Shown piece after piece: positions 6,911 to 46,643 of a DNA stretch of 64,000 nt. The number at the start of each line of letters is the position of its first letter. Within the stretch, counting starts at the first letter, position 1. The notes beneath the pieces are model-generated. The model saw nothing but the letters and a program-made list of their open reading frames with translations, made no database searches and was not told the DNA's origin. Source of the DNA: a virus; the IMG/VR virus record IMGVR_UViG_3300009165_000006, one strand, 5' to 3'. The position numbers and the translations under genes are program-made.

Positions 6911-7297
6911 ATGCCAGAATTCAGTGCCGGAGATATTGTTCGAGTAGTCCGTCAGCCAGAGCACCTGATTGTTCAGGTCGTGGGTAAAGTCGGGTTCCTT
7001 ACTAGCTTGACCGCAACCCATGCTGAGTTTACAGGTTTGAATTTAGATGGGTCCTACTCAGGGGGCATTACAACCCAACTTGATTGCCTGGAGCCTGAGA
7101 CCTCCCCTCAGTGGGTTGAAGCCAAAAGGCTTCGAGATGAGGCTTTCAAAAAGACCATAGCCGAGAGTATAGCTCGTGCTGAAAGATACAATGCCAGGAT
7201 GTTCGAACTGTCGGTCAAGTACGGAATCTCGGTGGAGCATGTGAAGGCATTGTTTTCTGACCTAACGTACCTCAATCGTCAGGGTTGGTGGCCGTAA
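6911..7297 (+). CDS. hypothetical protein
   Basis: Track ORF 6833..7297. ATG at 6911 (MPEFSAGDIV...). Confidence 0.55.
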   Translation: MPEFSAGDIVRVVRQPEHLIVQVVGKVGFLTSLTATHAEFTGLNLDGSYSGGITTQLDCLEPETSPQWVEAKRLRDEAFKKTIAESIARAERYNARMFELSVKYGISVEHVKALFSDLTYLNRQGWWP

Positions 7298-7392
7298 GTT
7301 CAGATTTTCAGTTGAACATCAGACCGCTTGTACGTAATAGGAGTTGGCCTGACCAGGTTTTGAGCAAAGCTCAGTCATTCGAGGAGAAGAGT

Positions 7393-7737
7393 ATGAGGAA
7401 TCGAGTATCGCGTGGGTTTACCGTTATAGAGGTGATCATCTGCGTGGCTCTGCTTGGGGTTTTCGCGGTCTTAATTGGGATGCAAGTCATCACGTGGTCA
7501 TCATCTCAGGGCTTGGCCGAAGAAGAAGCCCGAAACTACGCCGCGAAGATGGATAGGACTCTCAAGGGCGTCTCCTGTATGAACCGTGACATAGACGGGG
7601 ATGGTTACGTCTCGTGTACTCTCAACGTGGTCGAGAAAGACGGCTCCCTCTCCCGGGTTCCGATCGAATGCGCGGCCAAATGGACCTACAACAACGAAGG
7701 TTGCAAGGAAGCCTTCGTGAATGTGCTACGAAAGTAA
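7393..7737 (+). CDS. prepilin-type N-terminal cleavage/methylation domain protein (type IV pilin / pseudopilin-like)
   Basis: ATG at 7393 after GAGGAGAAGAGT. N-terminus MRNRVSRG/FTVIEVIICVALLGVFAVLIGM matches the class III signal (G|FT.IE plus hydrophobic helix). Confidence 0.65.
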   Translation: MRNRVSRGFTVIEVIICVALLGVFAVLIGMQVITWSSSQGLAEEEARNYAAKMDRTLKGVSCMNRDIDGDGYVSCTLNVVEKDGSLSRVPIECAAKWTYNNEGCKEAFVNVLRK

Positions 7738-7740
7738 CCC

Positions 7741-8190
7741 ATGGTCGTCAAGTTGGGTTCGGAAAGTGGGTTTGACCTCATCCAAGTACCGGTTTCACGT
7801 CTTTCTGAGATGTGTGACGTTACTCACGGGATAACCCCATGGGGTTATCCGATAAACCCCGAAGAGATTCGGGAAGCTGTAAGTGCCGGTCGAGTAGCGC
7901 CTAAACCCAGAAGGGGATTCCCCGGGTGGCCTACAGAGAGGAAGCGGCAGTATCACATCAAACGCGTGGCCTACTTGGTAATGAACGGATGGTATGATCC
8001 GATTGAGATCGACGTAGGGGTACCAAGCCTGAATTGTTACATTGACTGGCCTATCGTGGACGGAAATCACAGGTTCTATGCGTCTATCGTCCGAGAAGAT
8101 CCTTTCATTCTAGCGGTAATCAGCGGTGAGCTTGACTATGCTGAGGAGGTTCTTGGAGTTAAGTCAAGGGCGACATTGTCGCCCTTGTAG
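7741..8190 (+). CDS. ParB N-terminal/sulfiredoxin-fold nuclease-like protein
   Basis: 149-aa ORF containing WPIVDGNHRFYA (DG.HR motif typical of ParB-like nuclease domains). Confidence 0.45.
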   Translation: MVVKLGSESGFDLIQVPVSRLSEMCDVTHGITPWGYPINPEEIREAVSAGRVAPKPRRGFPGWPTERKRQYHIKRVAYLVMNGWYDPIEIDVGVPSLNCYIDWPIVDGNHRFYASIVREDPFILAVISGELDYAEEVLGVKSRATLSPL

Positions 8191-8272
8191 GTCCCTCATG
8201 CTCTAGGACGGTCGGACTTAAGTTCAAACTTCGATATTTATTGGCATCCCAGTTGAGTTTTGAGTAGGCTTA

Positions 8273-8282
8273 CGCGTAATAC
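8273..8282 (+). promoter_or_regulatory. CGCGTAATAC start-proximal motif
   Basis: CGCGTAATAC, then a 5-nt spacer (TGGGC), then the ATG at 8288. Member of the TGCGTAATA(G/C) motif family. Confidence 0.45.
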
Positions 8283-8287
8283 TGGGC

Positions 8288-9223
8288 ATGGCAAGCAACA
8301 TCAACTACAAGCAACTTCGGGATGGCACGTGGGGAGTTCAGGGGCGCAATCTTGTGACAGGCCGGACCGTGACGGTCACGAAGAAATCTGGTGAGACCAA
8401 GCAAGAAATAGTGGGAGAGATTGTTTGGAAAGGTACTGACGGCTTCTGCTACGCTAGAATTGCCGAACAGGGTGTTTCCTCTAAGTCTTCGACCCGTAGC
8501 AGCTCTACTCGAGGTAGTTCTACTCGTACCACTTCTACCCGGCGAAGCAGCCGGAAAAGCGGTAAGAAAGAGGGCGCCCAAGAGGGCAAATACTCATCAT
8601 CCCGCGAGGGCGATACGGGGGACGAGATCGGGAGAGTCTGCTTCCTCCGTGCGGGTGGAAACCGCATTCCAGTTGTTGTAGTGGGGTGGCAGACGGGCTA
8701 CTGTAGTGAAGATGGTCTCTCCTTTGGGTTACCAATGGATGATGGGTACTACACGGTTTCGTATTACAGAGACGCAACCGAGGAAGAGGCTACTGCACTT
8801 GCCTCCAAGGAAGCTGCTGCGAAGGCTGCGAAGGACTCAGCGGCCCAACAGGCCAAGGATGCTCGGATGGCAGCGGAGACGGCTGCTCGGGCACCTCTCG
8901 CAGGCCTTACGCGAAGTGATAGCTTGAGCACCCCTGCAGGTACCAAGACCTCGGTTGGTACCTACAAGAGTGAGCACGGGTGGGACATTAGCATCACCCG
9001 GGTCGAGATGGGTGATGCTAATGTGGTCTACATCGAGAGTGCCTACGGCTTCGACGACAGCCGAGAGTACCTCTGGGGCACTCCCGAGGTTCTTGCCACC
9101 CTCTACGAAGCCAGACTTGCTGAGCGTTCAATCAGCAAAGAAGAGGCTCAAGAGTACTTGTCCAAGTACTCGGGTTGCTATGGAGCAGACATCTACAAGT
9201 ACGTAGTCGCGCGAGGTGAGTGA
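8288..9223 (+). CDS. hypothetical protein with Ser/Thr/Arg-rich linker
   Basis: 311-aa ORF. Low-complexity SSTRSSSTRGSSTRTTSTRRSSRKS segment between two globular-looking halves. Confidence 0.7.
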   Translation: MASNINYKQLRDGTWGVQGRNLVTGRTVTVTKKSGETKQEIVGEIVWKGTDGFCYARIAEQGVSSKSSTRSSSTRGSSTRTTSTRRSSRKSGKKEGAQEGKYSSSREGDTGDEIGRVCFLRAGGNRIPVVVVGWQTGYCSEDGLSFGLPMDDGYYTVSYYRDATEEEATALASKEAAAKAAKDSAAQQAKDARMAAETAARAPLAGLTRSDSLSTPAGTKTSVGTYKSEHGWDISITRVEMGDANVVYIESAYGFDDSREYLWGTPEVLATLYEARLAERSISKEEAQEYLSKYSGCYGADIYKYVVARGE

Positions 9224-15705: not shown

Positions 15706-15912
15706 TCAGCTCTTCATGAAATTCGCTGGGCTATCTTTCCGGACTCGATGCTTGATCTCGTCCCGCACCTTGCATCCCTCGGCTGACTTCGTAGGCTCAA
15801 GTGGGGTAGCAGGGGCTCCACAGTTCTTGCACTTGCCGCCCTTCACATAGAGCGGGTTGTGACAGTAGTGGCACTTCGGCCTTCTCTTCGGCGTGTGCTT
15901 CATAACTACCAC
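15706..15912 (-). CDS. zinc-ribbon protein (paralog of 17357..17551)
   Basis: KCHYCHNPLYVKGGKCKNCGAPATPLEP versus KCYYCHRPLYLSDGKCTNCGAPATPLDP in the paralog. GTG start overlaps the upstream stop (GTGGTAG). Alternative ATG at 15903. Confidence 0.6.
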   Translation of the reverse strand: MVVMKHTPKRRPKCHYCHNPLYVKGGKCKNCGAPATPLEPTKSAEGCKVRDEIKHRVRKDSPANFMKS

Positions 15913-16167
15913 CGGACATCCTCCGGGAGCCTCCCATAGGCCAGCTCACAGGCTTCCTCGTACTTCGTAGCCCGCTCAACCTCACCTTCGAGCCGGAGGC
16001 TCATGGCACACGACTTGTTGATGGCGTAGCAAGCTAGCGTCTCCATGATCCGGCGAGCGCCCTTCCGCTTCCCAGTGACAACGACGGCTTCCTTCTGGGT
16101 GGCGATGTGCCACCCAGAAGTCTCGGAGTTCTTCCCGGCTCATTGCGTCGAAGTTTGGGATTTCCAT
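15906..16167 (-). pseudogene. frameshifted paralog of 17545..17811
   Basis: MEIPNFDAMSREELRDFW matches MELTNLEAMTQDELRAFW. After FW, homology (WHIATQKEAVVVTGKRKGARRIMETLACYAINKSC...LPEDVRW*) continues in the +1 frame, and 5 nt are missing relative to the paralog. Confidence 0.6.
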
Positions 16168-16172
16168 GCCTT

Positions 16173-16182
16173 CTATTACGCA
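16173..16182 (-). promoter_or_regulatory. TGCGTAATAG start-proximal motif
   Basis: Minus strand reads TGCGTAATAG AAGGC ATG (ATG at 16167). Confidence 0.45.
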
Positions 16183-16382
16183 CCACCAGCAGAGAATTCA
16201 ACTGAATCTTTGCTACCCACCTCTCCCCATGGTATCATCTGGCTATGGATACTCGACGAAAAGACCACATCCAAAGAGGAGGTCGTGTATTCCTTCCCCT
16301 TTGGCGTATGAGACAGATTAAGTTCGAAGAGGCTGTACTCAATTCGATAGCCAAGCGCGAGGGATTGACTGGTAGTCTTCAT
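16176..16382 (-). CDS. possible ThiS/MoaD-like ubiquitin-fold protein (C-terminal ..AGGA)
   Basis: 68-aa ORF divergent from the E1-like gene. Its C-terminus IPWGEVGSKDSVEFSAGGA* resembles the ThiS/MoaD ending (..gD.V.f....GG). The stop lies inside the downstream TGCGTAATAG motif. It competes with + ORF 16245..16520. Confidence 0.3.
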   Translation of the reverse strand: MKTTSQSLALGYRIEYSLFELNLSHTPKGKEYTTSSLDVVFSSSIHSQMIPWGEVGSKDSVEFSAGGA

Positions 16383-16598
16383 CACATGGATTGCCGGTGC
16401 GGCTCTATCTACTGCAAGGCGACGCCCTACCTCTCCACGACTAAAGACGCTCGACCCGAAGGATGCACTGAGGAGCCCAAGATGCGGAGCGGTTTCCAGC
16501 CCGGTCGACCTAAGTACTAGGAGTCAAGAGAACGACAAGCGAGTGTTCAATACTGAGGACAAGCAAGTAATCCCCCTCCATCTTTTGTGCTCTGATCT

Positions 16599-17345
16599 AT
16601 GCCTCAGCTAACAATTGAACAGCAAATCCGATATGAGCGTCACGTTAGGCTGCCTGAAGTCAAGGAAGCTGGGCAGATCAAACTGCTTCAGAGCAAGGTC
16701 CTGCTCATAGGGGCGGGCGGGTTAGGATCCCCAGTAGCGCTCTACTTAGCCGCCGCAGGGGTCGGTACCTTGGGGGTCGTGGACTTTGATTCGGTTAGCC
16801 TCTCGAACCTCCAGAGGCAGATCATCCACTCCACCGTCGGAAAACTCAAGGTCCCAAGTGTCACAGAGGCGGTGACCCGGTTGACCCCTGACGTATCCAC
16901 CGTTGAGTATGTCGGTCGCGTGGATGCCTCGACCATAGATCAGATCTTCGAGATTGGTTGGCACGTGGTCATTGACGCCGTGGATAACCTGGAAACTCGG
17001 TACCTCATCAACGAAGCTTGCGTAAAACGTAAGCTCCCATGGATCCACGGGGCCGTTTTCTCGTATGAGGGTCAAGTGACAACCTTCACCCGGGGCGGCC
17101 CCTGCTATCGATGCCTCTATCCAGATGTGCCCCCCAAAGGGGCTGACAAGCCCGGTGGCGTCCTTGGAGTTGTCCCAGGCGTGATAGGTACTATCCAAGC
17201 AACAGAGGCGCTCAAGGTCATCCTGGGGCTCGGACAGACGTTGGAAGGGACGATGCTCAACTACAACGCTCTCTACATGTCCTTCGACCGAATGCCGCTT
17301 GGAGCTCGCAACCCAAACTGCTCAGTTTGCTCGATGACTTACTGA
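16599..17345 (+). CDS. ThiF/MoeB/HesA-family E1-like adenylyltransferase
   Basis: RY.RH..L...G...Q..L..S.VLLIGAGGLGSPVALYLAAAGVG (nucleotide-binding loop), SNLQRQ, Zn motifs CYRC and CSVC. No Cys in the crossover loop (DVPPKGADKPGGVLG). Confidence 0.9.
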   Translation: MPQLTIEQQIRYERHVRLPEVKEAGQIKLLQSKVLLIGAGGLGSPVALYLAAAGVGTLGVVDFDSVSLSNLQRQIIHSTVGKLKVPSVTEAVTRLTPDVSTVEYVGRVDASTIDQIFEIGWHVVIDAVDNLETRYLINEACVKRKLPWIHGAVFSYEGQVTTFTRGGPCYRCLYPDVPPKGADKPGGVLGVVPGVIGTIQATEALKVILGLGQTLEGTMLNYNALYMSFDRMPLGARNPNCSVCSMTY

Positions 17346-17356
17346 GCATAGGTTCA

Positions 17357-17551
17357 TCACTTGAAAAACATGGCTGGTGTGTCCCGACGAAGAGGGTGCT
17401 TGATTTCGTCCTGCACCTTGGGATCTTCAGTGGGCTTCAGCGGGTCAAGTGGAGTAGCGGGGGCACCACAGTTCGTGCACTTGCCATCGCTCAAGTAAAG
17501 CGGACGGTGGCAGTAGTAGCACTTGGGGCGGCCCGTAAGATTACCTACCAC
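17357..17551 (-). CDS. zinc-ribbon protein (paralog of 15706..15912)
   Basis: Track ORF 17357..17590. I prefer the GTG at 17551 overlapping the upstream stop (GTGGTAG), as in the paralog. Confidence 0.6.
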   Translation of the reverse strand: MVGNLTGRPKCYYCHRPLYLSDGKCTNCGAPATPLDPLKPTEDPKVQDEIKHPLRRDTPAMFFK

Positions 17552-17811
17552 CGGACGTCCTCCGGGAGCTTCTCGTACTGGATCTCGCAAGCCTGCTCAT
17601 AGGTCAGGGCAGGTTCAATCTGGCCTTCGAGACGAAGGCCGATAGTACACGATTTGTTGATGGCGTAGCAGGCTAGACTCTCCATGACCTTGCGAGCGTC
17701 TTTCCGGTCACCAAGGAAGAGGCCGGCCTCTTCCTTGGTGGTAACGTGCCACTTCGACCAAAAAGCTCGAAGCTCGTCTTGAGTCATGGCCTCGAGGTTT
17801 GTGAGTTCCAT
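17545..17811 (-). CDS. hypothetical protein (intact copy of duplicated module)
   Basis: 88-aa ORF preceded by the TGCGTAATAG motif. Paralog of 15906..16167. Confidence 0.65.
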   Translation of the reverse strand: MELTNLEAMTQDELRAFWSKWHVTTKEEAGLFLGDRKDARKVMESLACYAINKSCTIGLRLEGQIEPALTYEQACEIQYEKLPEDVRW

Positions 17812-17816
17812 ACGTT

Positions 17817-17826
17817 CTATTACGCA
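17817..17826 (-). promoter_or_regulatory. TGCGTAATAG start-proximal motif
   Basis: Minus strand reads TGCGTAATAG AACGT ATG (ATG at 17811). Confidence 0.45.
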
Positions 17827-17887
17827 CGATTGGGGTGAAACTCAACAAGCAATTGTCTGATTCCTAGGATTGGTGTAGGGTTGAAGC

Positions 17888-18612: not shown

Positions 18613-19220
18613 AACGAGCCTACACGGGCATAGATCTCGATGGGCAAGATCCAAGCTATTTGATTGAGCAGACGTGCTTGCTTATCGCCGGCAAGGATTA
18701 CGATAGAAACATACCTAGACTTGAAGCTTGGAGGGTTCGTCTCGAAGAAGAAAGGCGCGAGAGGAAAGCCAAGCGTGATAGTGTTGAAGCAAAAGCTCGA
18801 GCTATCCTAATGGCCCATCTCGATGAAACCCAAGTGTCTGAGTTCGAATCCTCTGGATCCTTCCACGTCCTTGGTGCCGATGGTTACACCTATCTCATCA
18901 CCTCCAGGGAACAACACAATGTGTTTCGAATCGAGGAGGGACGTCGAACCTTCGAGTACTGCATCGTGACAAGGGATTTCGTACCCCTTCAGGATCAGAT
19001 GCTGACTCAAATGCTTCTCTTGACGACCCATCCTGCGATGTTTCATCAAATCGCGAACACCTGGGAAATTAGAGAAGATGGGACCCGCATCCGCATAGCA
19101 GGGCGACTAGTTGACGTTCTTGAGAACCCAGCCGCCCAAGTCGGCTGGGTTCTCAAATCTCCTTACCGGCAAGTATCTCTCTGTACATCGGGCCTAGCAC
19201 TTTTGAGACACTCCCCTTGA
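18555..19220 (+). CDS. hypothetical protein (start uncertain)
   Basis: 221-aa ORF with TTG start. The 3' end runs through the 19120-19156 stem-loop and overlaps the ligase gene end. Confidence 0.45.
   Translation: MGIRSRSAWDLDRGGLAFVERAYTGIDLDGQDPSYLIEQTCLLIAGKDYDRNIPRLEAWRVRLEEERRERKAKRDSVEAKARAILMAHLDETQVSEFESSGSFHVLGADGYTYLITSREQHNVFRIEEGRRTFEYCIVTRDFVPLQDQMLTQMLLLTTHPAMFHQIANTWEIREDGTRIRIAGRLVDVLENPAAQVGWVLKSPYRQVSLCTSGLALLRHSP
19120..19156. terminator. perfect 15-bp stem-loop at the convergent gene junction
   Basis: TTGAGAACCCAGCCG (19120-19134), loop CCCAAGT, CGGCTGGGTTCTCAA (19142-19156). It includes the ligase stop codon. No U-tract on either strand. Confidence 0.4.
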
Positions 19221-20094
19221 TGCTCTGCTCGGTAGCCCCGAGTTCGGTCATCTCCCGTTGGCAATCCTTGGCCAGGTCTGCGCAAACCGTGGTCAAGATC
19301 AATGGCATGTCCTTCATGGTATGGGTTAATTCAACCCCTCGGTCGTTAAGGCGTCCGACGGCGTTGATGACTCGCCCCTTCGTGACGTACTTGACGATGA
19401 AGTCATCAATCGGAGAAGGACCCCTTGGAGTTTTCTCTTTGGCGGCGGATGCAACTTCAGCGAACTTGGCGCATTTATGCTTACAGATTAGCCAGTTTCC
19501 AAACACGTTTCGGAGAAGAGGATTCGATCGGATGACCACCCCCTCAGCGATGTTGTCATCCCCAAAACCATTGATCTTCCCAACCGTGCTGGGTTTTTCT
19601 AAGAGCGCATCGAAGTTTGCCTGAGTCGGCTCCCCTCGCCACACCTCGGGTATTACAGGTAGCTCCATCTTGGAGCAAAGCTCGATGAACAGGTCGTAGG
19701 TGACAAAGTTCTTGGCCACCATGATGTCGAAGGCTCTGAAAAGAGGCTCCTGACCACTTGAGTATTGAACTCCCTTGGTTTTGATGCCGGGACCGTGAGC
19801 TTCACCAAAAACGGTGACTTCAGAGAACCCGTAGGACTTGATGACCTCCATCATCCTTGTTAGAAGGTCCTTCTGGGCTTTGAACTTGTTAAGCATGCTC
19901 CCGAGCGGGAAGTTCTGCCCAAGTTGATATTCGACGTCACGTGAACCATAACCAATCTCTTCGATGCTTTTCATCCCGAGTGGGAAAAAGAGACGAAAAT
20001 TCGAACCGTGGATTTTCTCGAGGGCAACTACTTCCCTGACAGAAAAGATCTCTGGGCAGTCGGAGAGTTGAACGATTGAAGGGTACTTTTCCAT
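19153..20094 (-). CDS. Rnl2-family RNA ligase
   Basis: Motif I EKIHGSNF (T4 Rnl2 has EKIHGTNF), VFGEAHGPGIK (T4: VFGEFAGPGIQK), AEGVVIRS, ICKHKCAKFAE (T4: IKCKNSKFSE), plus a C-terminal Rnl2-like domain. Confidence 0.88.
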   Translation of the reverse strand: MEKYPSIVQLSDCPEIFSVREVVALEKIHGSNFRLFFPLGMKSIEEIGYGSRDVEYQLGQNFPLGSMLNKFKAQKDLLTRMMEVIKSYGFSEVTVFGEAHGPGIKTKGVQYSSGQEPLFRAFDIMVAKNFVTYDLFIELCSKMELPVIPEVWRGEPTQANFDALLEKPSTVGKINGFGDDNIAEGVVIRSNPLLRNVFGNWLICKHKCAKFAEVASAAKEKTPRGPSPIDDFIVKYVTKGRVINAVGRLNDRGVELTHTMKDMPLILTTVCADLAKDCQREMTELGATEQSIKGSVSKVLGPMYREILAGKEI

Positions 20095-20193
20095 TGGATC
20101 CTGTATAAATCCACGGATAGGTACTCCAATCCCTTGGCCAAGTCAACATAATGTTGACTTTCTTGATATACCCTGACACCTTGGACTACTACT

Positions 20194-20529
20194 ATGTCAA
20201 AAGACGAATGTCCGGCTGAGGATAGACTGATAATAGGTCCAGATCTTGGGGATGGGTCGCATTCGTGCGTGAGGCATACTCCAGATCACAAGATCCACGT
20301 GGGTAGAGTCCAACCTTTGAGAGATGGGCAATCGATCATTGGGGACCAAGAGATTCTGATGGTGAAGTACGATTCCCAGCAAGGAGACTTTTTGGTACGA
20401 ACTGTATACAATCCTCGTCATCAAGGAGAAGAGTCCAACACCTCGAAGGGCCCAGCCAAGGTCACCAGCGACGCTTATCGAGCCGGCTACGACCGTATCT
20501 TCGGCAAGACTTCGATCGGAACAGCTTGA
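20194..20529 (+). CDS. hypothetical protein
   Basis: 111-aa ORF, ATG start. TACCCT box about 21 nt upstream. Confidence 0.55.
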   Translation: MSKDECPAEDRLIIGPDLGDGSHSCVRHTPDHKIHVGRVQPLRDGQSIIGDQEILMVKYDSQQGDFLVRTVYNPRHQGEESNTSKGPAKVTSDAYRAGYDRIFGKTSIGTA

Positions 20530-20598
20530 TGAGCTGGTTCGGTGTAATCACCGATAGTGTCTCAGGAGTTCAAAAACCCCAATGGGTTTGATCGGTTT

Positions 20599-20639
20599 GA
20601 TCAACTTTGACTAGCTTTGGAGTCAACTGCTACTACCCT
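20599..20639 (+). repeat. 41-nt element, copy A (second copy at 46707..46747)
   Basis: GATCAACTTTGACTAGCTTTGGAGTCAACTGCTACTACCCT versus GATCAACTTTGATCAGGTTTGGAGTCAACTGCTGCGACCCT: 5 mismatches in 41 nt, counted by eye. Confidence 0.7.
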
Positions 20640-20665
20640 GATCGATACAAGCGAGAACCCATGAT

Positions 20666-20869
20666 ATGACTTTCTCCGAAGCCCTTGTTCACCTCAAAGC
20701 TGGTCGACAGATTAAGCGCAAGGGGAGTGTTGTTTGGCTGCATATCGACAAGTACGGGCACATCCGGGAATTGGACTTTGCCTTTGGATTTCCAGACTCC
20801 ACACTCTGGGTACCAACCGAAGAGGACATCTTAGCCGAGGACTGGGAAATGCGCGAAGTTACCAGCTAA
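20666..20869 (+). CDS. DUF2829-like small protein (Tad2-like fold candidate)
   Basis: MTFSEALVHLKAGRQIKRKG...LWVPTEEDILAEDWEM matches the DUF2829 pattern (M.F.EAl..lk.G..v.R.gW ... p...DllA.DWe). Confidence 0.6.
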   Translation: MTFSEALVHLKAGRQIKRKGSVVWLHIDKYGHIRELDFAFGFPDSTLWVPTEEDILAEDWEMREVTS

Positions 20870-20931
20870 ATAGCTCATTGACACATAGTACTTAAATTAA
20901 CACTACCCTCAATTTACACAAAAGGTATCGT

Positions 20932-21561
20932 ATGTTCTTCTGGTTCGGATTGGCCCCTTGGATCTGGGGGTTTGAATTTGTACTGTTTGTAGGGCTTATT
21001 GTGCTAGTCGAATTCGAGTTCTACAAGTGGTCCACCGCAACCCTCATAGGAGCTCTCGTACTGAGTCACTTCCTGCATGCGTTCTCAGTAGTGGATCTAG
21101 TAAGGCATAACCCTGGAACCTCCTTTATCGTAGTCCTGAGCTATTTCCCTGCGGGCACCATATGGGCAACCTTCAAGTGGTTCTTGTTCCTCTATCGGTT
21201 CAAGGACGCCAGGATGGATGCCTTGGATGAGTTCCATGATATTCAGGAAGCGGCTCGAGCTCGAATCGCTTCGGGTGCTGTCTACACAATGGATGAGGAG
21301 TTGGTCAATAAGACGGATTACCAGTATTTGCGTAGCCAATACTTCAAGAAGACCAACCTTTCGAAGATCCCACGTGTCCGTGACTACAAGAGGAAGGTTA
21401 TCGGTTGGATTGCGTTCTGCGTGTTTTCGATAGTTGGCACTATCTTCCACGACCTGGTTCGTAGGATCGCACTCTGGATCTACAATCGAGTCAGCAGTTT
21501 CCTTCAGTGGATGTCAAATCGGATTATCTCCGAGGTGGAAGAAATACCTGAAAAGACCTAG
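20932..21561 (+). CDS. membrane protein
   Basis: 209-aa ORF with several hydrophobic helices (FFWFGLAPWIWGFEFVLFVGLIVLV, ...). Confidence 0.65.
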   Translation: MFFWFGLAPWIWGFEFVLFVGLIVLVEFEFYKWSTATLIGALVLSHFLHAFSVVDLVRHNPGTSFIVVLSYFPAGTIWATFKWFLFLYRFKDARMDALDEFHDIQEAARARIASGAVYTMDEELVNKTDYQYLRSQYFKKTNLSKIPRVRDYKRKVIGWIAFCVFSIVGTIFHDLVRRIALWIYNRVSSFLQWMSNRIISEVEEIPEKT

Positions 21562-22451
21562 TGAACCAAGGTTCGCTCGAAGGCCTCGTTGTTGAGCACA
21601 ATCATGATGGAGGGTGGATCCGGAGCGTTCGCTTGACGAGTTGACTCATCGTACTCGTGGCAACCCCACTCACCCTTCTCCATGTAAGGTTGAACTCTTA
21701 CCCATGTTCCGATACTTGGATCAATGGCTGCAGCAGCCGCTATTGTGTCGTGAAGGGCCTTCCCCTCTGGGCGCTTTTTGAAGTAAAAAGCCATCCCTTC
21801 CTTGATGAGGTCAAGCCCAGCATGGGCTCCGGAAGGGATTCTCTCATTGACCATAGGACCCCAGAAGACACCGTGACAAACGTTCTTGGAAACCATCCGT
21901 CGAGTCCAGATAGGTGAGTTTTTACCCAGTAAACCGAGGGCTGCTTTCGAGTCGCCCCCAAGGTTGAAGGTCGGACAGGTGAGCTTGCCGGCGAACTTGG
22001 GTAGCCGGTGTTCGGGTGGGACGATGTTGTCTCCGGCGAAGCCACCCTGGCAAGTCCACGTACGGAAAAACGGCCACACCTCACTGCTAGCCTTCCAGAT
22101 GTTGGTGAGGGCCGCTCCAGTGATTAGGTGGGTGGTTGGAAAGTCCAGTAGTACCTGCTTAATGACCTCAGTGGCGCTTCCCTGGGGCTGACAGGGGGAG
22201 ATCTTCCCAAGCCAATCATAGTGGAACTGGGACACCTTAGAAGTTTGCTTCTTGAGGCTCCCAATTCCGATAGGCACGTCCGTCCGCCCAAGACGATCGA
22301 GGACATGACGAACTATCCCGACCTGGTCGAAACCTCCTGGATGGATCGTAGCCCCAACGAGTTTGGCTCGGGGATGAGTAGCAAGGAGCGCTAGAGTGAA
22401 CACGTCATCTGGGTCACTCGTTTCCATGTCGAACAGATATTCTTGAGTCAC
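21558..22451 (-). CDS. nucleoside hydrolase-like (IU-NH family) protein
   Basis: N-terminal DMETSDPDDVFTLALL resembles the D.D...DD motif. ALHDTIAAAAAIDPSI resembles the family's LHD..A...a.dP block. GTG start. Confidence 0.6.
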   Translation of the reverse strand: MTQEYLFDMETSDPDDVFTLALLATHPRAKLVGATIHPGGFDQVGIVRHVLDRLGRTDVPIGIGSLKKQTSKVSQFHYDWLGKISPCQPQGSATEVIKQVLLDFPTTHLITGAALTNIWKASSEVWPFFRTWTCQGGFAGDNIVPPEHRLPKFAGKLTCPTFNLGGDSKAALGLLGKNSPIWTRRMVSKNVCHGVFWGPMVNERIPSGAHAGLDLIKEGMAFYFKKRPEGKALHDTIAAAAAIDPSIGTWVRVQPYMEKGEWGCHEYDESTRQANAPDPPSIMIVLNNEAFERTLVH

Positions 22452-22514
22452 TTGAAATCAATCTCAGGTTATAGGAGTGGCTGCCACCTAAATTTCGATG
22501 GTGTATCAGCTACC

Positions 22515-23456
22515 ATGCCCTCTTCGTTGAGTAAAGCCCAAGCTTGTCTGCTGTGTCATGTGGTCGGAGACTCCCTTGGGAGCCTCGTAGAGTTCGAGTC
22601 CGAGGAGACCATCCTTCAGGAGCACCAAGGAGAAAAAGTGCGCTACCTCGCTGATGGGGGCACCTGGGAGACCTTGGCGGGGCAAGGCACAGACGATTCC
22701 GAAATGGCCATCACCCTAGCTAGGACTCTCATTCACCATGGTTTTTACAGCTCAACCATTATGCGGAGTATGTATTGCTATTGGCTCAATAGCCAACCAT
22801 TTGACGTTGGCAGGACCACTCAAAATGGACTCCTGGATATGCCTGACTTCCACAGCCAAGCCAATGGGGCTTTGATGCGTGTCGCCCCCTTGGGGATCTT
22901 TGGAGCGAAGAAGAAGGACTGGAGAAAGACCATGATCTGGGCGATGGAGGATGCCCTTATTACGCACCCAAATCAAATATGCTTACAAATCAATGCACTT
23001 TATGTATCGATGATCGATCAAGCAATCGGAAGTGATGCAAGCCCAGATCAACTCTACGGTGCGCTGGCCGCAACAGCAGTGGATATGGAAGCCCATCCAG
23101 TTATCCTCGAAGCTATCGACCGAGCTAGAACTGCCCCACCGGAAAACTACATGGTGAATATGGGTTGGGTTGTCCTCGCTTTCCAGAATGCGCTCTATCA
23201 ACTACTACACGCCCCGTCATTGACTGAAGGAATTGTCGATACCGTCAATCGCGGAGGTGATACCGATACCAACGGAGCAATTGCCGGTGCTCTGCTTGGG
23301 GCTGTTTACGGGATGGAGCAAGTCCCCAAGGATTGGATCGATGGAGTAACCCAATGTTGCCCATCGGTGACCAACCCCTACTCTAGAAAGCCACGTACAG
23401 GCTTCTTTTGGACTAATGATGTGCTAGAAGTAGCCAAAAAACTACTTGATAGTTGA
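22515..23456 (+). CDS. ADP-ribosylglycohydrolase family protein
   Basis: GDSLGSLVEF, GTDDSEMAITLA and GGDTDTNGAIAGALLGAVYG are classic DraG/ARH motifs. ATG at 22515 within track ORF 22443..23456. Confidence 0.85.
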   Translation: MPSSLSKAQACLLCHVVGDSLGSLVEFESEETILQEHQGEKVRYLADGGTWETLAGQGTDDSEMAITLARTLIHHGFYSSTIMRSMYCYWLNSQPFDVGRTTQNGLLDMPDFHSQANGALMRVAPLGIFGAKKKDWRKTMIWAMEDALITHPNQICLQINALYVSMIDQAIGSDASPDQLYGALAATAVDMEAHPVILEAIDRARTAPPENYMVNMGWVVLAFQNALYQLLHAPSLTEGIVDTVNRGGDTDTNGAIAGALLGAVYGMEQVPKDWIDGVTQCCPSVTNPYSRKPRTGFFWTNDVLEVAKKLLDS

Positions 23457-23488: not shown

Positions 23489-23941
23489 ATGAGTGAACAA
23501 ACCCCTGGTAGAGACGAGAAAGGCCTTACGATATCCGGAAGGACGATGCTCCGGATACTCTTGGAGTTTGCGAGGTTACTCGCAGCTTCGAGAAAAGTCG
23601 GAAGTAAGATGACTTATGAGGTTCTCCAGACTCCAACCATTCTCGTTGAGATTCGGACCCTCCTGTGGATTGCATCTGGGATGGCCAAGAGATTGGGTTC
23701 GCTTGTGGAGGTAGAAGACTACTTGGCCGAGCATGCTGAGGAAGACGAGAGGACTGTTTTAGCTGGAACTACTGAACTAGAGAAGACCTTGATAGCGGAA
23801 GCTCTGGCGCGTAGCGGGGTTCCAAGATGCCCCAAGTGTCACGAACCTACCTGCCCAATGTGTAGGGAGTGTCACTCTTGTGAAAAGCGAGAGTCGCACT
23901 CTAGCCCTTTCGATTTCTCAGGTGGTGGAGCGGCTAACTAA
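23489..23941 (+). CDS. hypothetical protein with C-terminal Cys cluster
   Basis: 150-aa ORF. CPKCHEPTCPMCRECHSC near the C-terminus. Confidence 0.55.
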   Translation: MSEQTPGRDEKGLTISGRTMLRILLEFARLLAASRKVGSKMTYEVLQTPTILVEIRTLLWIASGMAKRLGSLVEVEDYLAEHAEEDERTVLAGTTELEKTLIAEALARSGVPRCPKCHEPTCPMCRECHSCEKRESHSSPFDFSGGGAAN

Positions 23942-28169: not shown

Positions 28170-28682
28170 ATGGTCCTTTTCCGCGATATCCCCCTGTTCC
28201 CTCGGGCTCACTACGAGATCGACGTGGATTGGAACTTCCTCGAAAAGTTCATTAGCAATGCCATCAAAGAGGACGGGCTCAACCTTGACCCCGACTTCCA
28301 ACGAGCCCACGTGTGGACTCGGGAACAACAGGTGGCCTACGTCGAGTACATCTTGAAGGGTGGCGAGGTAGGCCGTAATCTAACCTTCAACGCAAAGGGT
28401 TGGGGGTACGATCTTGTAACCGGGTCGTATGAGATCGTGGATGGAAAGCAAAGGCTCGAAGCGGCTCGAGCCTTCCTTCGGGATGACTTTCCAGTCTTTG
28501 GGCACTACCGATCGGAGTATACGGATCGGATGCGGCTCCACGCTGGCTTCAAGTGGCGGATTTGCTCCCTCGAAACTCGAGAGGAAGTCCTCCAACTCTA
28601 CCTCAATATCAATGCCGGTGGGACCCCTCATACGCAAGAGGAACTTGACCGAGTTCGCCACATGCTGCGTTCACGTTCATAG
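28170..28682 (+). CDS. DUF262 (ParB-like/GmrSD N-terminal type) domain protein
   Basis: DPDFQRAHVWTREQQVAYVEYIL and IVDGKQRLEA match the DUF262 FQR..vW / DGQQR blocks. No DUF1524-type nuclease half is present. Confidence 0.6.
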   Translation: MVLFRDIPLFPRAHYEIDVDWNFLEKFISNAIKEDGLNLDPDFQRAHVWTREQQVAYVEYILKGGEVGRNLTFNAKGWGYDLVTGSYEIVDGKQRLEAARAFLRDDFPVFGHYRSEYTDRMRLHAGFKWRICSLETREEVLQLYLNINAGGTPHTQEELDRVRHMLRSRS

Positions 28683-30669: not shown

Positions 30670-33301
30670 ATGGCCGAAGGTAAGAAGGAACTAGTACTAG
30701 TAAACAACGAGTTTGCATGGGTGAAGGATCTGTCAGGGGGTATGATTTGTGTATTGCGGTCCCCACAAGGAGCCGCTATCCGTAGACTCTGTGATTGTGA
30801 TCCAGAATGCGAATAGAGAGTTCGTTCCGATCGGTGGGGACCAACTGAAGGGGCAGACTTTCGTCCAAGCTCTGGAATCCCAGTACATCATCCTACACAA
30901 TCCCGAGACTCCCGGTGCTCGACTGATGACTCGAGGGAAGAACGAAGCCATAGCTCTCCAAACCGGTAAGTGCATCGTCAAACGTGGTCCATGCGAGTTC
31001 CCTCTTTGGCCTGGTCAGCAAGCGGAGGTTGTTGACGGCCATCGCATGACTTCGGACCAGTTCCTTCGAATTCGAGTAGTGGGGGAAGTGGCTCCTGACG
31101 ACGTCAAGGCTCTTCAGTTGTTACTCAAGGAGGACTGGCTCACCTCAAAGCCCATGCCTCAGCCCGTCAAAGCCGAGGAGCCTGCGGGTCTTTTCATCAT
31201 GGCCAGTGCATCCAAGGATCCGGAACCCGTAGAGGATGAGGTCAAGCTACCCGAGCTAACCATCGGCTCTGAGTGGATTGTCCGCGGAATGAAGACCAAG
31301 TTCTTCATTCCTCCTACTGGGGTTACGGTCCTCCCTGCTAATGACCGTGTGACCATAGGGGAAGACCCTTATGTGATGAATGGCGTTCCGCTCGATGCTG
31401 ATGAGTACGTCATTCTGAAGAACCGCAGTGGTCGAATCAGCTACGTTCTAGGCCCAACAACAGTCACCCCCTGCGAAGACCAAGAGTTTCAAGAATCTAA
31501 CAGTGGGTCTCACAACCCAGTCTTCAAGGCCCAAAGTATCGACGAAAACAGCGGTGTTCTACTCCGAACCCTGTTCCCGATGACTCGCAAGACGATCCAA
31601 GAACGTATGGGCTTGGATGTTCAAGTCCAATTTACTCCAATTGCCAACCCCAATGAGGACGGAGAGGAAAGCGATAGGAGAACACCTTCCTCTGATGAGG
31701 TATTACCTCCAGGGACTCAACTTGTCGTTTGGCGGGAGAAGCGATTGGTCTTCCCGGCGGATGGTATCCAGATCATCAAGAAGTTTGAGGCCATCCACAT
31801 TCTAGCGGGTACTGCTCGGTACGTGAAGAACTCGCTGACGGGTAGAACTCGAATCGTGCAAGGGGAATGTCTATACCTAGCTGATCCCCGATGTGAGGAG
31901 TTCACCAGCCGTCGTCTGACCAAAGAGATGATCGGACTCTGGCTTCCGGGGCAAACCTTCGAGACTTACAACCCCGAACTGGTTCCCTGCATTACCGTTC
32001 CTCAGGGTACGGCCGCCATGATCCTCAAGCGAGGAATTGGCTCAAACACTCGCAAGACCATCATTGGTTATGCCACTTACTTTCTGGAGTGGGACGAGAC
32101 CCTCTGCGAGATGAAGCTCTCGACCTCGCGGGGTGGAGAAGCCAAGACCTATCAGAATGCAATCAAGATCTGCTACCTCTGGATGAAGTCCAATCGAATT
32201 AACGATGCTCTACTGGATGGACGTACCCGGGAGGATTGTGAGTTCTCGATCCAATACACCCTGACGGTTGACTTCGAGGAGGAGCACAATGACTCCTGGT
32301 TCAACGTCGATGACTATGTGTTTCTCGTCTGTGAAGAGGTTCGCTCACGTCTACGCGGAGGTCTCCTTGCTACCTCCATCAGCGAATTGTCCACAAACTA
32401 CGTCGAGATCATCCGAGACATAGTTCTCGGCATGAAGCCCAGTGTACCGCTTAAGAGTGAAGACCCACTAGCCAGGCTAGAAGCCTATACCATACCTCAC
32501 CGCCCAGGAATCGAGTTCCCGAGGTTCGGAGCTCGACTGGTCGACATCAACATCAATGCCTTCAGTATTCGAGATCCAGAACTGCAGGGGCAGCTCCGCC
32601 AACTTCAGATGGCGGGGATCAACGAGTCTGTTCGAACTCGAACAGCTCAGATCATCTTAGATGGGGCTCGAATTCGAGCGGAGATTGAGAGGAACCAAGC
32701 CACCCTTGCCACGGAGACCACCAAGTTCAAGAAGGGTCAGGAGCTTATAAACACTGAGGTGGCTGAAGAGACCACTCGTAAGAAAGGTCAGCAAGAGCAT
32801 CAAACGGCCCTTGCTTACTTGGAAGCGGAAAAGGCTCGGTTATTGGCTGAAGCAAGTAAGAACCTTGAGGTAGCTGCGAAGAATGACGAGCTATCGAAAT
32901 CTCAGCTAACTACTCAAGCTACTCTTGCAGATCTTGGACTCAAGATCACCGAGCTCAAGAAGCTGACTGATCTTGCAGTTCTCGAAGTAACTAGCAAGAA
33001 TATGGAGCTCAAACGTCAAGACGAAACCGAAAAGGTGAAGGCAACTGCCGAGGCCGCTGCTATCGTCAACAACTCGGTCTTACCGACTCTCGGGGCACAC
33101 CTGGCGGAGATTCGAGACTCCCTCGTTGCAGACAAGCTGGTTAGTGCCTTCGGTGCAGCGGCAAGCTTCCGAGGCGTGGAAGTCGTCGAGCTTGCTGCTC
33201 AGACCCTCAGCTCGTTACCCGGTTTGGGATCTGTTCTTGGTCGACTACGTCGGAATCCTTCACGGAATGAAGGCCAGGGTAGCCCTCAAGCGACTAGATA
33301 A
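30670..33301 (+). CDS. major vault protein (MVP)-like protein; N-terminal 26 codons in a different frame (+1 shift near 30746-30752)
   Basis: Track ORF 30749..33301 (GTG start). QYIILHNPE...CEFPLWPGQ parallels MVP [9 protein letters not shown]...DPFPLYPGE. The shoulder-like DDYVFLVCEEVRSRLRG and the long C-terminal coiled coil parallel the MVP shoulder and cap-helix. ATG 30670 ORF (MAEGKKELVLVNNEFAWVKDLSGGMI) aligns with the MVP N-terminus. Confidence 0.75.
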
Positions 33302-45249: not shown

Positions 45250-45520
45250 TGAACCTCGATAAGAACTATCGCACGCCTTGACTCCAGTGACGAACTGTGA
45301 ACCGCTTCAACCACTCTTACGCGCGAGCTTGTCTGAATCTCAACTAAATTGAGTATAGCCTTCCAAAAGACCGTTCTGTGAAACTTATTCAAAGTTGCTC
45401 ATAGGAGAACTCCGATGTTCACTTCCTGCTTCAACGAGACATGACTCGTAGGCCGAAGGGTTCTCCTTCGTTCCGCCGCTAGAGGACTCTCCACAGGCTT
45501 TTTAGCGCCGAAGGCGCCTA
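45250..45520 (-). ncRNA. predicted omega RNA (reRNA) region of the TnpB element
   Basis: By analogy with IS200/605 TnpB loci, the guide RNA scaffold overlaps the tnpB 3' end and the right end. The 154-nt non-coding stretch after the stop contains the hairpin CTCAA-CTAAA-TTGAG (45339-45353). Boundaries are not determinable by eye. Confidence 0.35.
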
Positions 45521-46643
45521 GGTTCCTCGGGAACTCCGAGTACCTTTCCAAATTCTTCGCCGCATTCTCATCTCGATCATGAATAGCTCCACATCCTTCA
45601 CAAACCCACTCTCTCACAGAAAGAGCCAGCTGCGGCCGTTTAAGGCCGCAGCTGGTACATATCTTCGAGGATGGGAACCATCGATCAGCTACTTCTAGCT
45701 TAGATCCATACCAAGTGGTCTTGTAGGAAAGTAGCCTCTTACTTTCAAACCACCCTTGGTCCAAGATCGACCGAGAAAGGTGAGGATTCTTACTCATTCC
45801 ACGAATACCAAGGTCTTCCACAACGATGGCTGACTTGGTTTTCGCCAGCCCCGTTGTGAACTTATGAAGGAAATCCCTTCGAACGTTTGCTACTCGTGAG
45901 TGAATCCTCGCTAATCTTTGAGCTGATTTCCTCCTATTTGACGAACCCTTACGCTTCCTCGAATGAGAGCGTTGAGCCCTTCTTAACCGACTTAACGCTT
46001 GTTTCAATGGATTCGGGGCATGTATCTTCGTACAGGCCCCGTCCGAAGAGACCGTAGCGAAAGTAAGAATCCCTAGATCTACCCCAGCTTTTGGTCCTTG
46101 GATAGGAATAGGATCCGTCACGACCTCAACGGTATTGACGGATACGAACCATCGATCTGCTACCCTCGAAATCGTAGCTGAAAGGATCTCCCCACTAATC
46201 CTGCCGTTGATCTTCTCTTTGGTTCGAATAGTCCCAAGCCTAGGGAGCTTAATATACCTAGTTTGTGGCTCAATTGAACCATAGAGACGGAAGGAATCCT
46301 TTGATTTATGCTTCTTTTTGAACTTTGGGAAGCCAACTCCTTCTGATCTTCTGGACCAGAAAGCTTTGAAAGCTTTGTCAAGATCACGAAGAGCTTCCTG
46401 AGGGGCACACTTGGAAACCTCGTACATCCAAGGGAAGTCAGGGCCCTTGCGGGCGTTGAGGTCCCGATGTTCAGCGATGGCGTTGGTGAACTTCTCCTTA
46501 CCTTCTTGGGTTCGGAAGCGTTCGATCCTCCTTTGGAGGGACCAATTCCAAGCGAAGCGAGCCGTTCCGGCATGCTTCGCCAAGAACGTCCGAACCCGAT
46601 TGTTCGGATCTAACTCGAACTTATACGCCTTCCGAAGTTCCAT
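45399..46643 (-). CDS. tnpB: TnpB (IS200/IS605 OrfB-family RNA-guided endonuclease)
   Basis: MELRKAYKFELDPN...FLAKHAGTARFAWNW (OrfB N-terminus), RuvC-I GVDLGILTFAT, RuvC-II AIVVEDLGIRGM, Zn finger CTSCG...CEGCG, RuvC-III HDRDENAAKNL. Confidence 0.92.
   Translation of the reverse strand: MELRKAYKFELDPNNRVRTFLAKHAGTARFAWNWSLQRRIERFRTQEGKEKFTNAIAEHRDLNARKGPDFPWMYEVSKCAPQEALRDLDKAFKAFWSRRSEGVGFPKFKKKHKSKDSFRLYGSIEPQTRYIKLPRLGTIRTKEKINGRISGEILSATISRVADRWFVSVNTVEVVTDPIPIQGPKAGVDLGILTFATVSSDGACTKIHAPNPLKQALSRLRRAQRSHSRKRKGSSNRRKSAQRLARIHSRVANVRRDFLHKFTTGLAKTKSAIVVEDLGIRGMSKNPHLSRSILDQGWFESKRLLSYKTTWYGSKLEVADRWFPSSKICTSCGLKRPQLALSVREWVCEGCGAIHDRDENAAKNLERYSEFPRNLGAFGAKKPVESPLAAERRRTLRPTSHVSLKQEVNIGVLL

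Follow-up and report, generated by a model that had tools for sequence, protein, structure and literature searches.

A variable accessory gene region encoding a short Tad2-like protein and a predicted ADP-ribosylhydrolase in a large phage-like element

The DNA analysed here is a stretch of 64,000 nucleotides from the IMG/VR virus record IMGVR_UViG_3300009165_000006 (this whole stretch is called the window), which derives from a source contig of ~102 kb; identical DNA was found in run SRR5468433 and in JGI samples 3300027956 and 3300081805. Between positions 19153 and 23456, the window carries four genes, encoding an Rnl2-type RNA ligase (Rnl2), a short protein of the DUF2829 or Tad2-like family, a nucleoside hydrolase (NH) and an ADP-ribosylhydrolase (ARH), with two further genes, orf111 and TM209, lying in between (Table 1). 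An original prediction made from the sequence had named these four genes and had proposed that they form an island of counter-defence. The presence of the genes was confirmed, as their domain matches lie far beyond chance; all four domain calls are above the Pfam curated cut-offs, and searches of PHROGs, NCBIfam and the PDB concurred with them. ARH was also confirmed to be divergent from NH, but its start had been misplaced at a TTG at 22443. That start would overlap the start of NH, and the real start is the ATG at 22515, because the gene calls on identical contigs and the close homologues give proteins of 312-313 aa.

Table 1. Genes and spacer of the interval and its right-hand boundary in the window
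Feature	Position	Strand	Evidence
Rnl2, 313 aa	19153-20094	-	RNA_ligase PF09414, E 4e-16
orf111, backbone gene	20194-20529	+	No family; homologues at 45-94% identity in L003, L047, L049 and L050
Tad2-like (DUF2829), 67 aa, slot A	20666-20869	+	PF11195, E 1e-9, profile positions 1-72 of 73
TM209, predicted membrane protein, 209 aa, backbone	20932-21561	+	Hydrophobic N-terminal segments in the translation
NH, 297 aa, slot B	21558-22451	-	IU_nuc_hydro PF01156, E 7.7e-12, 45.9 bits vs cut-off 34.2
NH-ARH divergent intergenic region, 63 bp	22452-22514		Gene coordinates
ARH, DraG/Tri1-like, 313 aa	22515-23456	+	ADP_ribosyl_GH PF03747, E 4e-55
orf150, backbone gene bounding the variable region	23489-23941	+	Cys-rich C-terminus CPKCHEPTCPMCRECHSC

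The arrangement of the genes is not that of a single operon. Rnl2 lies on the minus strand and is divergent from orf111 across a spacer of 99 bp; orf111, the Tad2-like gene and TM209 follow on the plus strand; NH lies on the minus strand and is convergent with TM209, their stops overlapping by 4 bp; and ARH and the downstream array are again on the plus strand. Because the strands alternate, at least four transcription units are required. Scans of 16-26 kb for promoters and terminators returned fewer matches than shuffled sequence, so the operon structure could not be derived from them, and no sigma-70-like promoter was reported by the scan in the NH-ARH spacer. A CTACCCTSA motif upstream of the Tad2-like gene and TM209 was dropped, because its 3 matches compare with 0.9 expected and 3 matches were reached in 4 of 100 shuffles. 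Homology searches were uninformative for the remaining genes: orf111 had no match in Pfam, PHROG, NCBIfam or PADLOC, and TM209 and orf150 had none in Pfam, NCBIfam or PADLOC. The PADLOC models likewise gave zero matches for Rnl2, the Tad2-like protein, NH and ARH, and no NAD-salvage gene was matched in the region by the Pfam and PADLOC scans.

The window proteins were compared with related loci by tblastn, and precomputed Pfam annotations of the neighbouring genes were used, which gave a comparison of five genomes including the window. Relatives found via NH and the Tad2-like protein comprise viral contigs of IMG/VR (33-512 kb) and contigs from metagenomes (39-473 kb). A backbone was recognised in the order orf206, Rnl2, orf111, slot A, TM209, slot B on the opposite strand, then ARH or nothing, and orf150. 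Homologues of TM209 (42-56% identity) are found in L003, L047 and L050, while in L049 only its last 42 codons remain; homologues of orf150 (50-82% identity) stand right behind ARH or NT5C/NH in L003, L047, L049 and L050. Rnl2 is 76-92% identical in L003, L049 and L050 and missing from L047, and from this distribution it is a semi-conserved flank rather than variable cargo.

The contents of the slots differ in every genome. In the window, slot A holds the Tad2-like gene, slot B holds NH, and ARH is present. L049, whose proteins are 82-99% identical to those of the window (ARH 93%, NH 99%), has the same three genes and an extra 79-aa gene in slot A. In L047, slot A contains a DUF4406/DUF1937-like gene, a 111-aa gene and a Tad2-like gene, and slot B contains a 70-aa open reading frame (ORF); ARH is present, NH is absent, and Rnl2, orf104 to orf206 and the ThiF gene have been replaced. 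L050 carries a DUF4406-like gene in slot A, NT5C together with proteins of 359 and 444 aa in slot B, and ARH, and lacks both the Tad2-like gene and NH. L003 carries a DUF4406-like gene and two genes of no recognised family in slot A; its slot B holds NH, immediately preceded by NT5C on the same strand, and it lacks both ARH and the Tad2-like gene. Five genomes thus present five different combinations, which indicates that the genes assort independently of one another. In this respect the proposed island was half right: the interval does behave as a variable accessory island, but the alternating strands and the independent occurrence of the genes in relatives do not allow the four genes to be treated as one unit. 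On balance, the comparison leads us to lean towards reading the interval as a hypervariable accessory region in a large phage-like element, made up of single-gene modules that are independent of one another and of which ARH and the Tad2-like gene are plausible candidates for counter-defence. The clustering of the genes as such is not significant, since at least 4 annotated genes among 6 consecutive ones occur in ~10% of random placements (~12 annotatable of ~95 window genes; a rough estimate, as the scans covered part of the small ORFs), and the argument therefore rests on comparative genomics.

The DUF4406/DUF1937 protein is found in slot A of the relatives and not in the window. This protein of 111-121 aa, which matches DUF7768/DUF1937/DUF4406 and which we take to belong to the N-(deoxy)ribosyltransferase-like clan, is encoded in L003 (13373-13738), L047 (2180-2515), L050 (5198-5536) and L011 (6964-7281), and in L047 and L011 its gene lies less than 1 kb upstream of a short Tad2-like gene. 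In addition, the 359-aa and 444-aa proteins, encoded next to NT5C and ARH in L050 (7504-9917), are both encoded again, as a pair with 29-38% identity to them, in the 512-kb contig L018 (2395-4931), where two Tad2-like genes lie at a distance of 2.5 kb and an NH gene at ~10 kb.

The original prediction had taken DUF2829 to be the family of the anti-Thoeris sponge Tad2, and this was corroborated by the Pfam name of PF11195, "Thoeris anti-defense 2-like", and by the literature (10.1101/2023.05.01.538930). The 67-aa protein scored 39.2 bits against a PF11195 cut-off of 25, and a phmmer search of the PDB matched Tad2 proteins only (8sme, SPO1 Tad2, 9e-5; 8v3e; 9eib). An AlphaFold model built with the 14-member subfamily has a pLDDT of 69.7, which is moderate, and falls below 50 at residues 39-46. 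Nevertheless, the Foldseek hits in the PDB from rank 1 to rank 21 were all Tad2 structures (SPO1, Myroides, HgmTad2/AcrIIA7 and SptTad2; TMq 0.53-0.64), no other fold match was credible, and the model indicates that the protein has the Tad2 core fold. With the known members, SPO1 gp34.65, HgmTad2/AcrIIA7, ModTad2 and SptTad2, it has in common PF11195 and this core of helix alpha1, beta strands, a C-terminal helix and a final strand, and it keeps the C-terminal signature W-x-P-[ST]-x-x-D-[IL]-L-A-E-D-W, including the equivalents of W73 and D79 of SPO1 Tad2. However, the known members are 88-104 aa long. The beta2-beta3 insertion (SPO1 residues 36-59) is missing from the window protein, a four-residue turn, DKYG, joining the strands instead. 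The gcADPR sponge assembles as a homotetramer whose pockets lie at the protomer boundaries. In SPO1 Tad2, helix alpha2 of this insertion is the dimer interface, and in HgmTad2 and SptTad2 a beta2-beta5 insertion of 35-41 residues contains the cyclic-dinucleotide site (PMC10680739); the window protein, being without such an insertion, differs from the HgmTad2/SptTad2 type in this respect as well.

The ligand pocket was compared residue by residue, using MAFFT and HMMER alignments to SPO1 Tad2. The contacts reported for SPO1 Tad2 are W25, N26, I63, T65, D67, H71, W73, S76, T78 and D79 (10.1101/2023.05.01.538930), and the corresponding residues of the window protein are S21, V22, L36, F40, F42, T46, W48, T51, E53 and D54, respectively, so that 2 of the 10 are identical. 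The Trp-Asn dyad (W25/N26 in SPO1 Tad2, W21/N22 in HgmTad2) is absent, Ser21-Val22 standing in its place where HMMER puts a gap, and T65, D67, H71 and T78 are also altered. In HgmTad2, both the W21A/N22A and the S90A/T92A/D93A mutants lost binding of glycocyclic ADP-ribose (gcADPR) (PMC10680739). The proposed structure prediction and pocket comparison therefore gave a divided answer, in that the Tad2 fold was recovered but the gcADPR dyad and most of the SPO1 contacts were not, and in silico the Tad2 pocket appears to be partly lacking. Given these differences from the pockets of characterised Tad2 members, we do not predict gcADPR as the ligand.

The lack of the dyad tryptophan is a property of a whole subfamily. 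The 14 proteins, of 66-68 aa, have a mean column identity of 71%, and this strong conservation shows that the Tad2-like protein is functional and under selection. The loop at the dyad position is the most variable segment of the subfamily, and an invariant loop, E-L-D-x-x-F-G-x-P-D, is specific to it. An exhaustive profile search for DUF2829 returned 274 representatives, many of them of 60-72 aa with a single-stretch match, which indicates that the short form is common. Of 139 domains, 93 have a tryptophan equivalent to W25; the figures are 52 of 60 for long forms, 19 of 41 for short forms and 0 of 13 for this subfamily. A tblastn search with the Tad2-like protein against GenBank phages gave no match. 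We retained as noteworthy that this is a DUF2829 subfamily which, judged from the alignments, is without the gcADPR dyad. A probable role for the protein is that of a small oligomeric sponge, plausibly for another ligand; the DUF2829 proteins characterised to date are all sponges of immune signals (10.1101/2023.05.01.538930; PMC10680739; PMC12393519), and the family is functionally plastic, its ligands including 3'cADPR, His-ADPR, N7-cADPR, cGAMP and cUMP (PMC12393519).

The identification of the divergent gene as an ADP-ribosylglycohydrolase was substantiated by a complete DraG-type active site. Glu26, Thr59-Asp60-Asp61, Asp97 and the GGDTDT motif (247-252) are intact, and the catalytic and metal residues do not vary among 20 homologues from phage-like and bacterial sources; this strong conservation shows that the gene is under selection. 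In the PDB, ARH matched over its full length DraG (3g9d, E 5.7e-26; 2woc, E 6.6e-24) and Tri1 (6dre, E 3.8e-16), whereas the match to ARH3 covers the C-terminal 40 residues of ARH only, and on this difference we infer a specificity for Arg-ADP-ribose. In the full-length alignment with DraG of Rhodospirillum and Azospirillum, the E-D-D residues occupy the same numbering (E26/28, D60, D97) and the metal motif GGD[TA]DT is shared; the catalytic and metal-site roles of the DraG E-D-D residues have been described (PMC8120803). ARH scored below the equivalog cut-offs of both TIGR02662 and NF041672, the DraG and Tri1 models, and it differs from Serratia Tri1 in being without the toxin-occluding N-terminal extension, since NF041672 aligns from its position 66 onto ARH residue 4. 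No DraT-, Tre1- or other ADP-ribosyltransferase-like gene was recognised among the neighbours in family scans, and a motif search of the window found no ADP-ribosyltransferase or NUDIX enzyme.

The predicted enzyme would remove mono-ADP-ribose from arginine in a metal-dependent reaction, and it probably erases marks made by ADP-ribosyltransferase toxins or defences of the host, as a counter-defence of the orphan-antitoxin type analogous to AdfN; alternatively, it might reset ADP-ribosylation of the element's own making. AdfN (T4 gp30.3) is an orphan NADAR antitoxin acting against DarTG1 and is alike in concept, being a stand-alone eraser of ADP-ribose without a toxin gene (PMC11825919). The two differ in that AdfN has a NADAR fold and acts on guanine-ADP-ribose in DNA, whereas the window ARH would be a DraG-like all-alpha enzyme predicted to act on Arg-ADP-ribose in protein. 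Relatives of ARH were found via the protein database, while an IMG/VR scan with ARH peptide patterns yielded no confirmed relative. Thousands of bacterial proteins share 50-55% identity with ARH, and ARHs at 26-28% identity occur in 35 GenBank phages, mostly jumbo phages and phages of Streptomyces. In Serratia phage BF, a 357-kb jumbo phage, the ARH gene (region 253440-266336) lies 4 kb upstream of genes for a NadR-like adenylyltransferase and PnuC, a pair known as NARP3 (PMC13464706). Two bacterial homologues at ~52% identity (L051 and L052) were placed in their context: in an alphaproteobacterium, the gene has BrxR, an SbcCD-like gene and DUF4007 as neighbours, and in a Pontiellaceae genome it stands among genes for a Mrr-helicase, Vsr, a MORC-like ATPase and a DprA/SLOG-like protein.

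The NH protein falls within the fold of the group-I nucleoside hydrolases. Its AlphaFold model (pLDDT 95.3) retrieved RihA, the inosine-uridine nucleoside hydrolase (IU-NH), plant NRh and yeast URH1 as the top Foldseek hits, at a TM score of ~0.7 and 16-20% identity, and a profile of 28 homologues matched the IU-NH structures 8ctm and 1mas and RihA (E 3e-8 to 3e-6). Asp15-Asp16, His77, Asn163 and His234-Asp235 of NH align with Asp14-Asp15, His82, Asn168 and His241-Asp242 of IU-NH, and among the homologues His77, Asn163 and His234-Asp235 show no variation or next to none. The fold is shared with Crithidia/Leishmania IU-NH, E. coli RihA/RihB and yeast Urh1, as are the equivalents of Asp14-Asp15, His82, Thr126, Asn168 and His241-Asp242; the window NH differs from them in having Thr for Glu166 and a DxExxxxDD metal motif. 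The N-terminal sequence FDMETSDPDD (7-16) gives this motif in place of the canonical DxDxxxDD, and the family-wide invariant D8-x-E10-T-x-D13-P-D15-D16 is one residue longer, with Glu for the second Asp, so that only the DD aligns directly. Further conserved segments of the protein are TGAALTN (111), QGGFAGDN (135) and SKNVCHG (188), and across the 896 homologues the family also conserves QGGFAGD, KN-x-x-HG and K-x-x-HD. These homologues include proteins from contigs of 228-473 kb and from chromosomes of Myxococcus, Pyxidicoccus and Chryseobacterium (47-51% identity). The window NH belongs to a separate family of megaphage-like contigs, Myxococcota and Bacteroidota. No match to this family was found by tblastn in 50,697 GenBank phage genomes.

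On sequence and model, NH looks like an ordinary group-I nucleoside hydrolase that would cleave the N-glycosidic bond of ribonucleosides. The idea that it acts on NAD or ADP-ribose was not sustained, as the catalytic residues of IU-NH are kept and its partner in L003 is NT5C and not an NAD or ADP-ribose (ADPR) enzyme. Because NT5C lies directly upstream on the same strand there, we read NH as an enzyme of nucleoside catabolism; with NT5C, which accompanies or replaces it in relatives, it would convert nucleoside monophosphate to nucleoside and then to base and ribose, in catabolism or salvage. The other neighbours of NH genes are varied and comprise a dCMP deaminase, a glycosyltransferase and a NUDIX gene in L046, a methyltransferase-like gene directly upstream in L005 and a 416-aa ORF directly downstream in L008. 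In L044 and L045, a Tad2-like gene lies 6-9 kb from NH. This proximity was rejected as significant, since one contig has at least 2 DUF2829 genes per 228 kb and a distance of <10 kb in ~3 of 9 lineages is unremarkable. As separate observations, a ThiF-like gene stands beside NH in L004 and a JAB/MPN-like gene (HTHPGSGYPGPSYTD) lies near NH in L005. In the window itself, within 15706-17827, a ThiF/MoeB-like E1 gene (16599-17345, PF00899, E 2e-72) is found between diverged direct repeats. The repeats, 15903-16183 and 17542-17827, are 73-76% identical and ~1640 bp apart and represent a duplicated minus-strand module of an 88-aa gene and a zinc-ribbon gene, the 88-aa gene being split in the left copy into ORFs 15906-16046 and 15982-16167.

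A rival explanation is that the whole interval is plain auxiliary metabolism with no link to immunity, in which NH, with NT5C and the DUF4406-like protein of relatives, recycles host nucleotides, ARH is a housekeeping acquisition from bacteria, DUF2829 has a role other than that of a sponge, Rnl2 serves general RNA maintenance, and the common theme is a by-product of annotation. It is favoured by the chance level of the clustering, by the thousands of bacterial proteins to which ARH is ~52% identical, by the dCMP deaminase, NUDIX and NT5C neighbours of NH elsewhere, and by the free-standing occurrence of the NH family on the chromosomes of Myxococcus, Pyxidicoccus and Chryseobacterium, where the one Myxococcus context inspected was uninformative and unremarkable. 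However, rapid gain and loss between genomes whose proteins are otherwise 80-99% identical is typical of conflict cargo, the characterised DUF2829 proteins all trap immune signals, and the two bacterial contexts of ARH resemble defence islands. We consider this explanation unlikely.

Rnl2 was found to be a divergent member of its family with its motifs intact: motif I, EKIHGSN (from residue 26, with Lys27), motif III, FGEAHG (96-101), motif IV, EGVVIR (184-189), and motif V, ICKHK (203-207). It matches PHROG 548 (E 1.9e-34, positions 3-336 of 341) and TIGR02307 (E 1.9e-24, 23-319 of 326), and the coverage of these two models shows that the Rnl2-like C-terminal domain is present; because its TIGR02307 score of 86.8 is under the trusted cut-off of 197, it was classed as divergent. 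It aligned to T4 Rnl2 (2hvq) at E 1.3e-5 over residues 21-280, and is alike in motifs I, III, IV and V and the C-terminal domain, but differs from the T4 enzyme in its low identity, its score below the TIGR02307 cut-off and the absence of a Pnkp encoded alongside it in the window. Among the window ORFs of 60 aa or more, none contains a Walker-A or a HAD-type DxDGT motif, the motifs expected of a Pnkp-type end-healing enzyme, and no end-healing kinase or phosphatase was matched by Pfam or PHROG among the window ORFs scanned. Since the mending of anticodon-nuclease products requires such an enzyme, the proposed repair of this damage by Rnl2 is not supported. The T4 pathway that counters PrrC uses Rnl1 with Pnkp, not Rnl2. 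The window enzyme would seal 3'-OH/5'-phosphate nicks in structured RNA, as part of a dispersed RNA-maintenance set with the CCA-adding enzyme. This enzyme, with an HD domain, is encoded 38 kb away (58123-59478; NF009814, E 5e-88). Rfam and tRNA scans of the window were empty. RlaP-type nucleotidyltransferases often accompany RNA ligases (PMC7824862); orf206 was considered as one and rejected, having no Pfam or PHROG match. A stand-alone Response_reg protein of 124 aa (57714-58088) is divergent from the CCA-adding enzyme gene, and a divergent 'cRec' receiver domain has been tied to NAD and cyclic-phosphate processing (Iyer et al., PMC7824862).

A coordinated island, as the original prediction had it, would have the Tad2-like protein soak up the gcADPR of Thoeris, ARH and NH process ADPR molecules, and Rnl2 mend the cuts of anticodon nucleases. 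Its general theme was supported, since RNA repair together with NAD/ADPR counter-systems is recognised in jumbo phages (PMC7824862). The gene sets surveyed there (Iyer et al. 2021) are alike in combining RNA ligases and CCA-adding enzymes with enzymes of NAD-derived molecules. The survey names Macro, NADAR, Nudix, cRec, SIR2 and NAD-salvage genes, and a search of its text found no mention of a DraG-like ARH, a nucleoside hydrolase or DUF2829 (PMC7824862). Several further points agree with a coordinated island: the family and fold of the 67-aa protein and the many immune nucleotides bound by Tad2 proteins (PMC12393519), the intact active site of ARH, the ability of eukaryotic DraG-like enzymes to cut ribose-ribose O-glycosidic bonds as well (PMC8120803), and the ARH of phage BF beside NAD-rebuilding genes (PMC13464706). 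In addition, XopQ, of the NH fold, was crystallised with ADP-ribose (4p5f), although it appeared at rank 50 only in the Foldseek list, and anti-defence genes commonly occupy variable slots. Against this, the W-N dyad is absent, only two of the ten SPO1 contacts are identical, the four genes are independent of one another in relatives, NH keeps the residues that bind a free ribonucleoside and pairs with NT5C in L003, no Pnkp was recognised in the window, and the region has neither PADLOC nor NAD-salvage matches. Taken together, these results make a coordinated island doubtful.

It is conceivable, and in our view very improbable, that the slot genes encode a set of enzymes acting on glycosidic bonds, together with a remodelled sponge, by which ADPR-derived immune signals are destroyed or trapped. 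In such a case, ARH might act on 2'/3'cADPR at its ribose-ribose link, the kind of link that ARH3 cuts in poly(ADP-ribose); the DxExxxxDD centre of NH might cleave the base-ribose bond of N7-cADPR, His-ADPR or a molecule of the nicotinamide riboside type; and the 67-aa protein might bind a ligand new to the Tad2 family via its ELD-x-x-FG-x-PD loop. RyDEP is the only known family that cleaves gcADPR (PMC13232231), and if this were true, the slot genes would represent new enzyme classes that degrade NAD-derived immune signals, beyond RyDEP.

We return to the interpretation that we favour, that of independent single-gene modules in a hypervariable region of a large phage-like element, because several observations weigh against it. 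First, the slot repertoire of ARH, NH, NT5C, DUF4406/DUF1937 and Tad2-like proteins is coherent, all being concerned with nucleotide glycosidic or phosphoester chemistry, and pieces of it recur near each other in the distant contigs L011, L018, L044 and L045; from the gene contents, this recurrence could reflect a functional link. Second, the Tad2-like protein has kept Trp48 and Asp54, and a near-invariant Trp24 lies three residues past the position of the missing Trp, so that, from the alignment, a remodelled ADPR-type pocket using Trp24 is plausible. Third, the defence-island-like setting of bacterial ARH homologues comes from two contexts. Fourth, no capsid or terminase gene was recognised by PHROG or Pfam among the ~60 window ORFs scanned, and the viral nature of the element is inferred from the IMG/VR membership of its relatives, its gene architecture and PHROG hits. 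A megablast of 16-26 kb against GenBank phages gave no DNA-level match.

Most of the ~60 scanned ORFs in the window had no family. Those that could be assigned include two TnpB-like genes, the ThiF/MoeB-like E1, a CrtC/AttH lipocalin, a protein with GmrSD_N only, a vault-shoulder-like protein, a radical SAM enzyme and the CCA-adding enzyme. The TnpB/Cas12f-like genes lie at 115-1572 and 45399-46643; one of the pair is complete (OrfB_IS605, TNB and helix-turn-helix, 414 aa), and the other is divergent (485 aa, weak TNB). In L047, a TnpB-like gene (7030-8433) interrupts the region of the orf100 homologue. A 170-aa protein (28170-28682) consists of the GmrSD N-terminal (DUF262-type) domain alone (PF03235, E 3e-12), also matches PADLOC NsnA and PD-T4-2_A, and is conserved in L050 and partly in L049. 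An 850-aa protein (30749-33301) has the major-vault-protein shoulder domain (PF11978, E 3e-9) and is kept in relatives, at lengths of 877 aa (L049) and 884 aa (L046); the L046 protein also has a faint Vault_3 match. At 52607-55701, the radical SAM enzyme (54241-55701) follows a 217-aa protein, which has a precomputed Csf3 match (PF27782) on the identical contig L054, and a 327-aa protein of PHROG 22746; these may form a three-gene module. Two features of the window are unusual for a phage genome: throughout the whole 64 kb, no ORF of at least 60 aa has a Walker-A motif (GxxxxGK[ST]), and the genes inspected have no Shine-Dalgarno-like sequence upstream.

The locus mapped here would be a swap-prone site in a clade of large phage-like genomes and, as such, a source of new candidates for counter-defence, of which ARH, the minimal Tad2-like protein, the DUF4406-like protein and the 359-aa and 444-aa proteins are those to be harvested. 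The NH family, which recurs in contigs of up to 473 kb, appears to be a viral enzyme class unseen in the GenBank phages searched. For the DUF2829 family, about a third of the sampled domains, including the whole subfamily of 66-68 aa, are without the key tryptophan, and, if the cautious reading is right, the Pfam label "Tad2-like" alone does not predict a gcADPR sponge.

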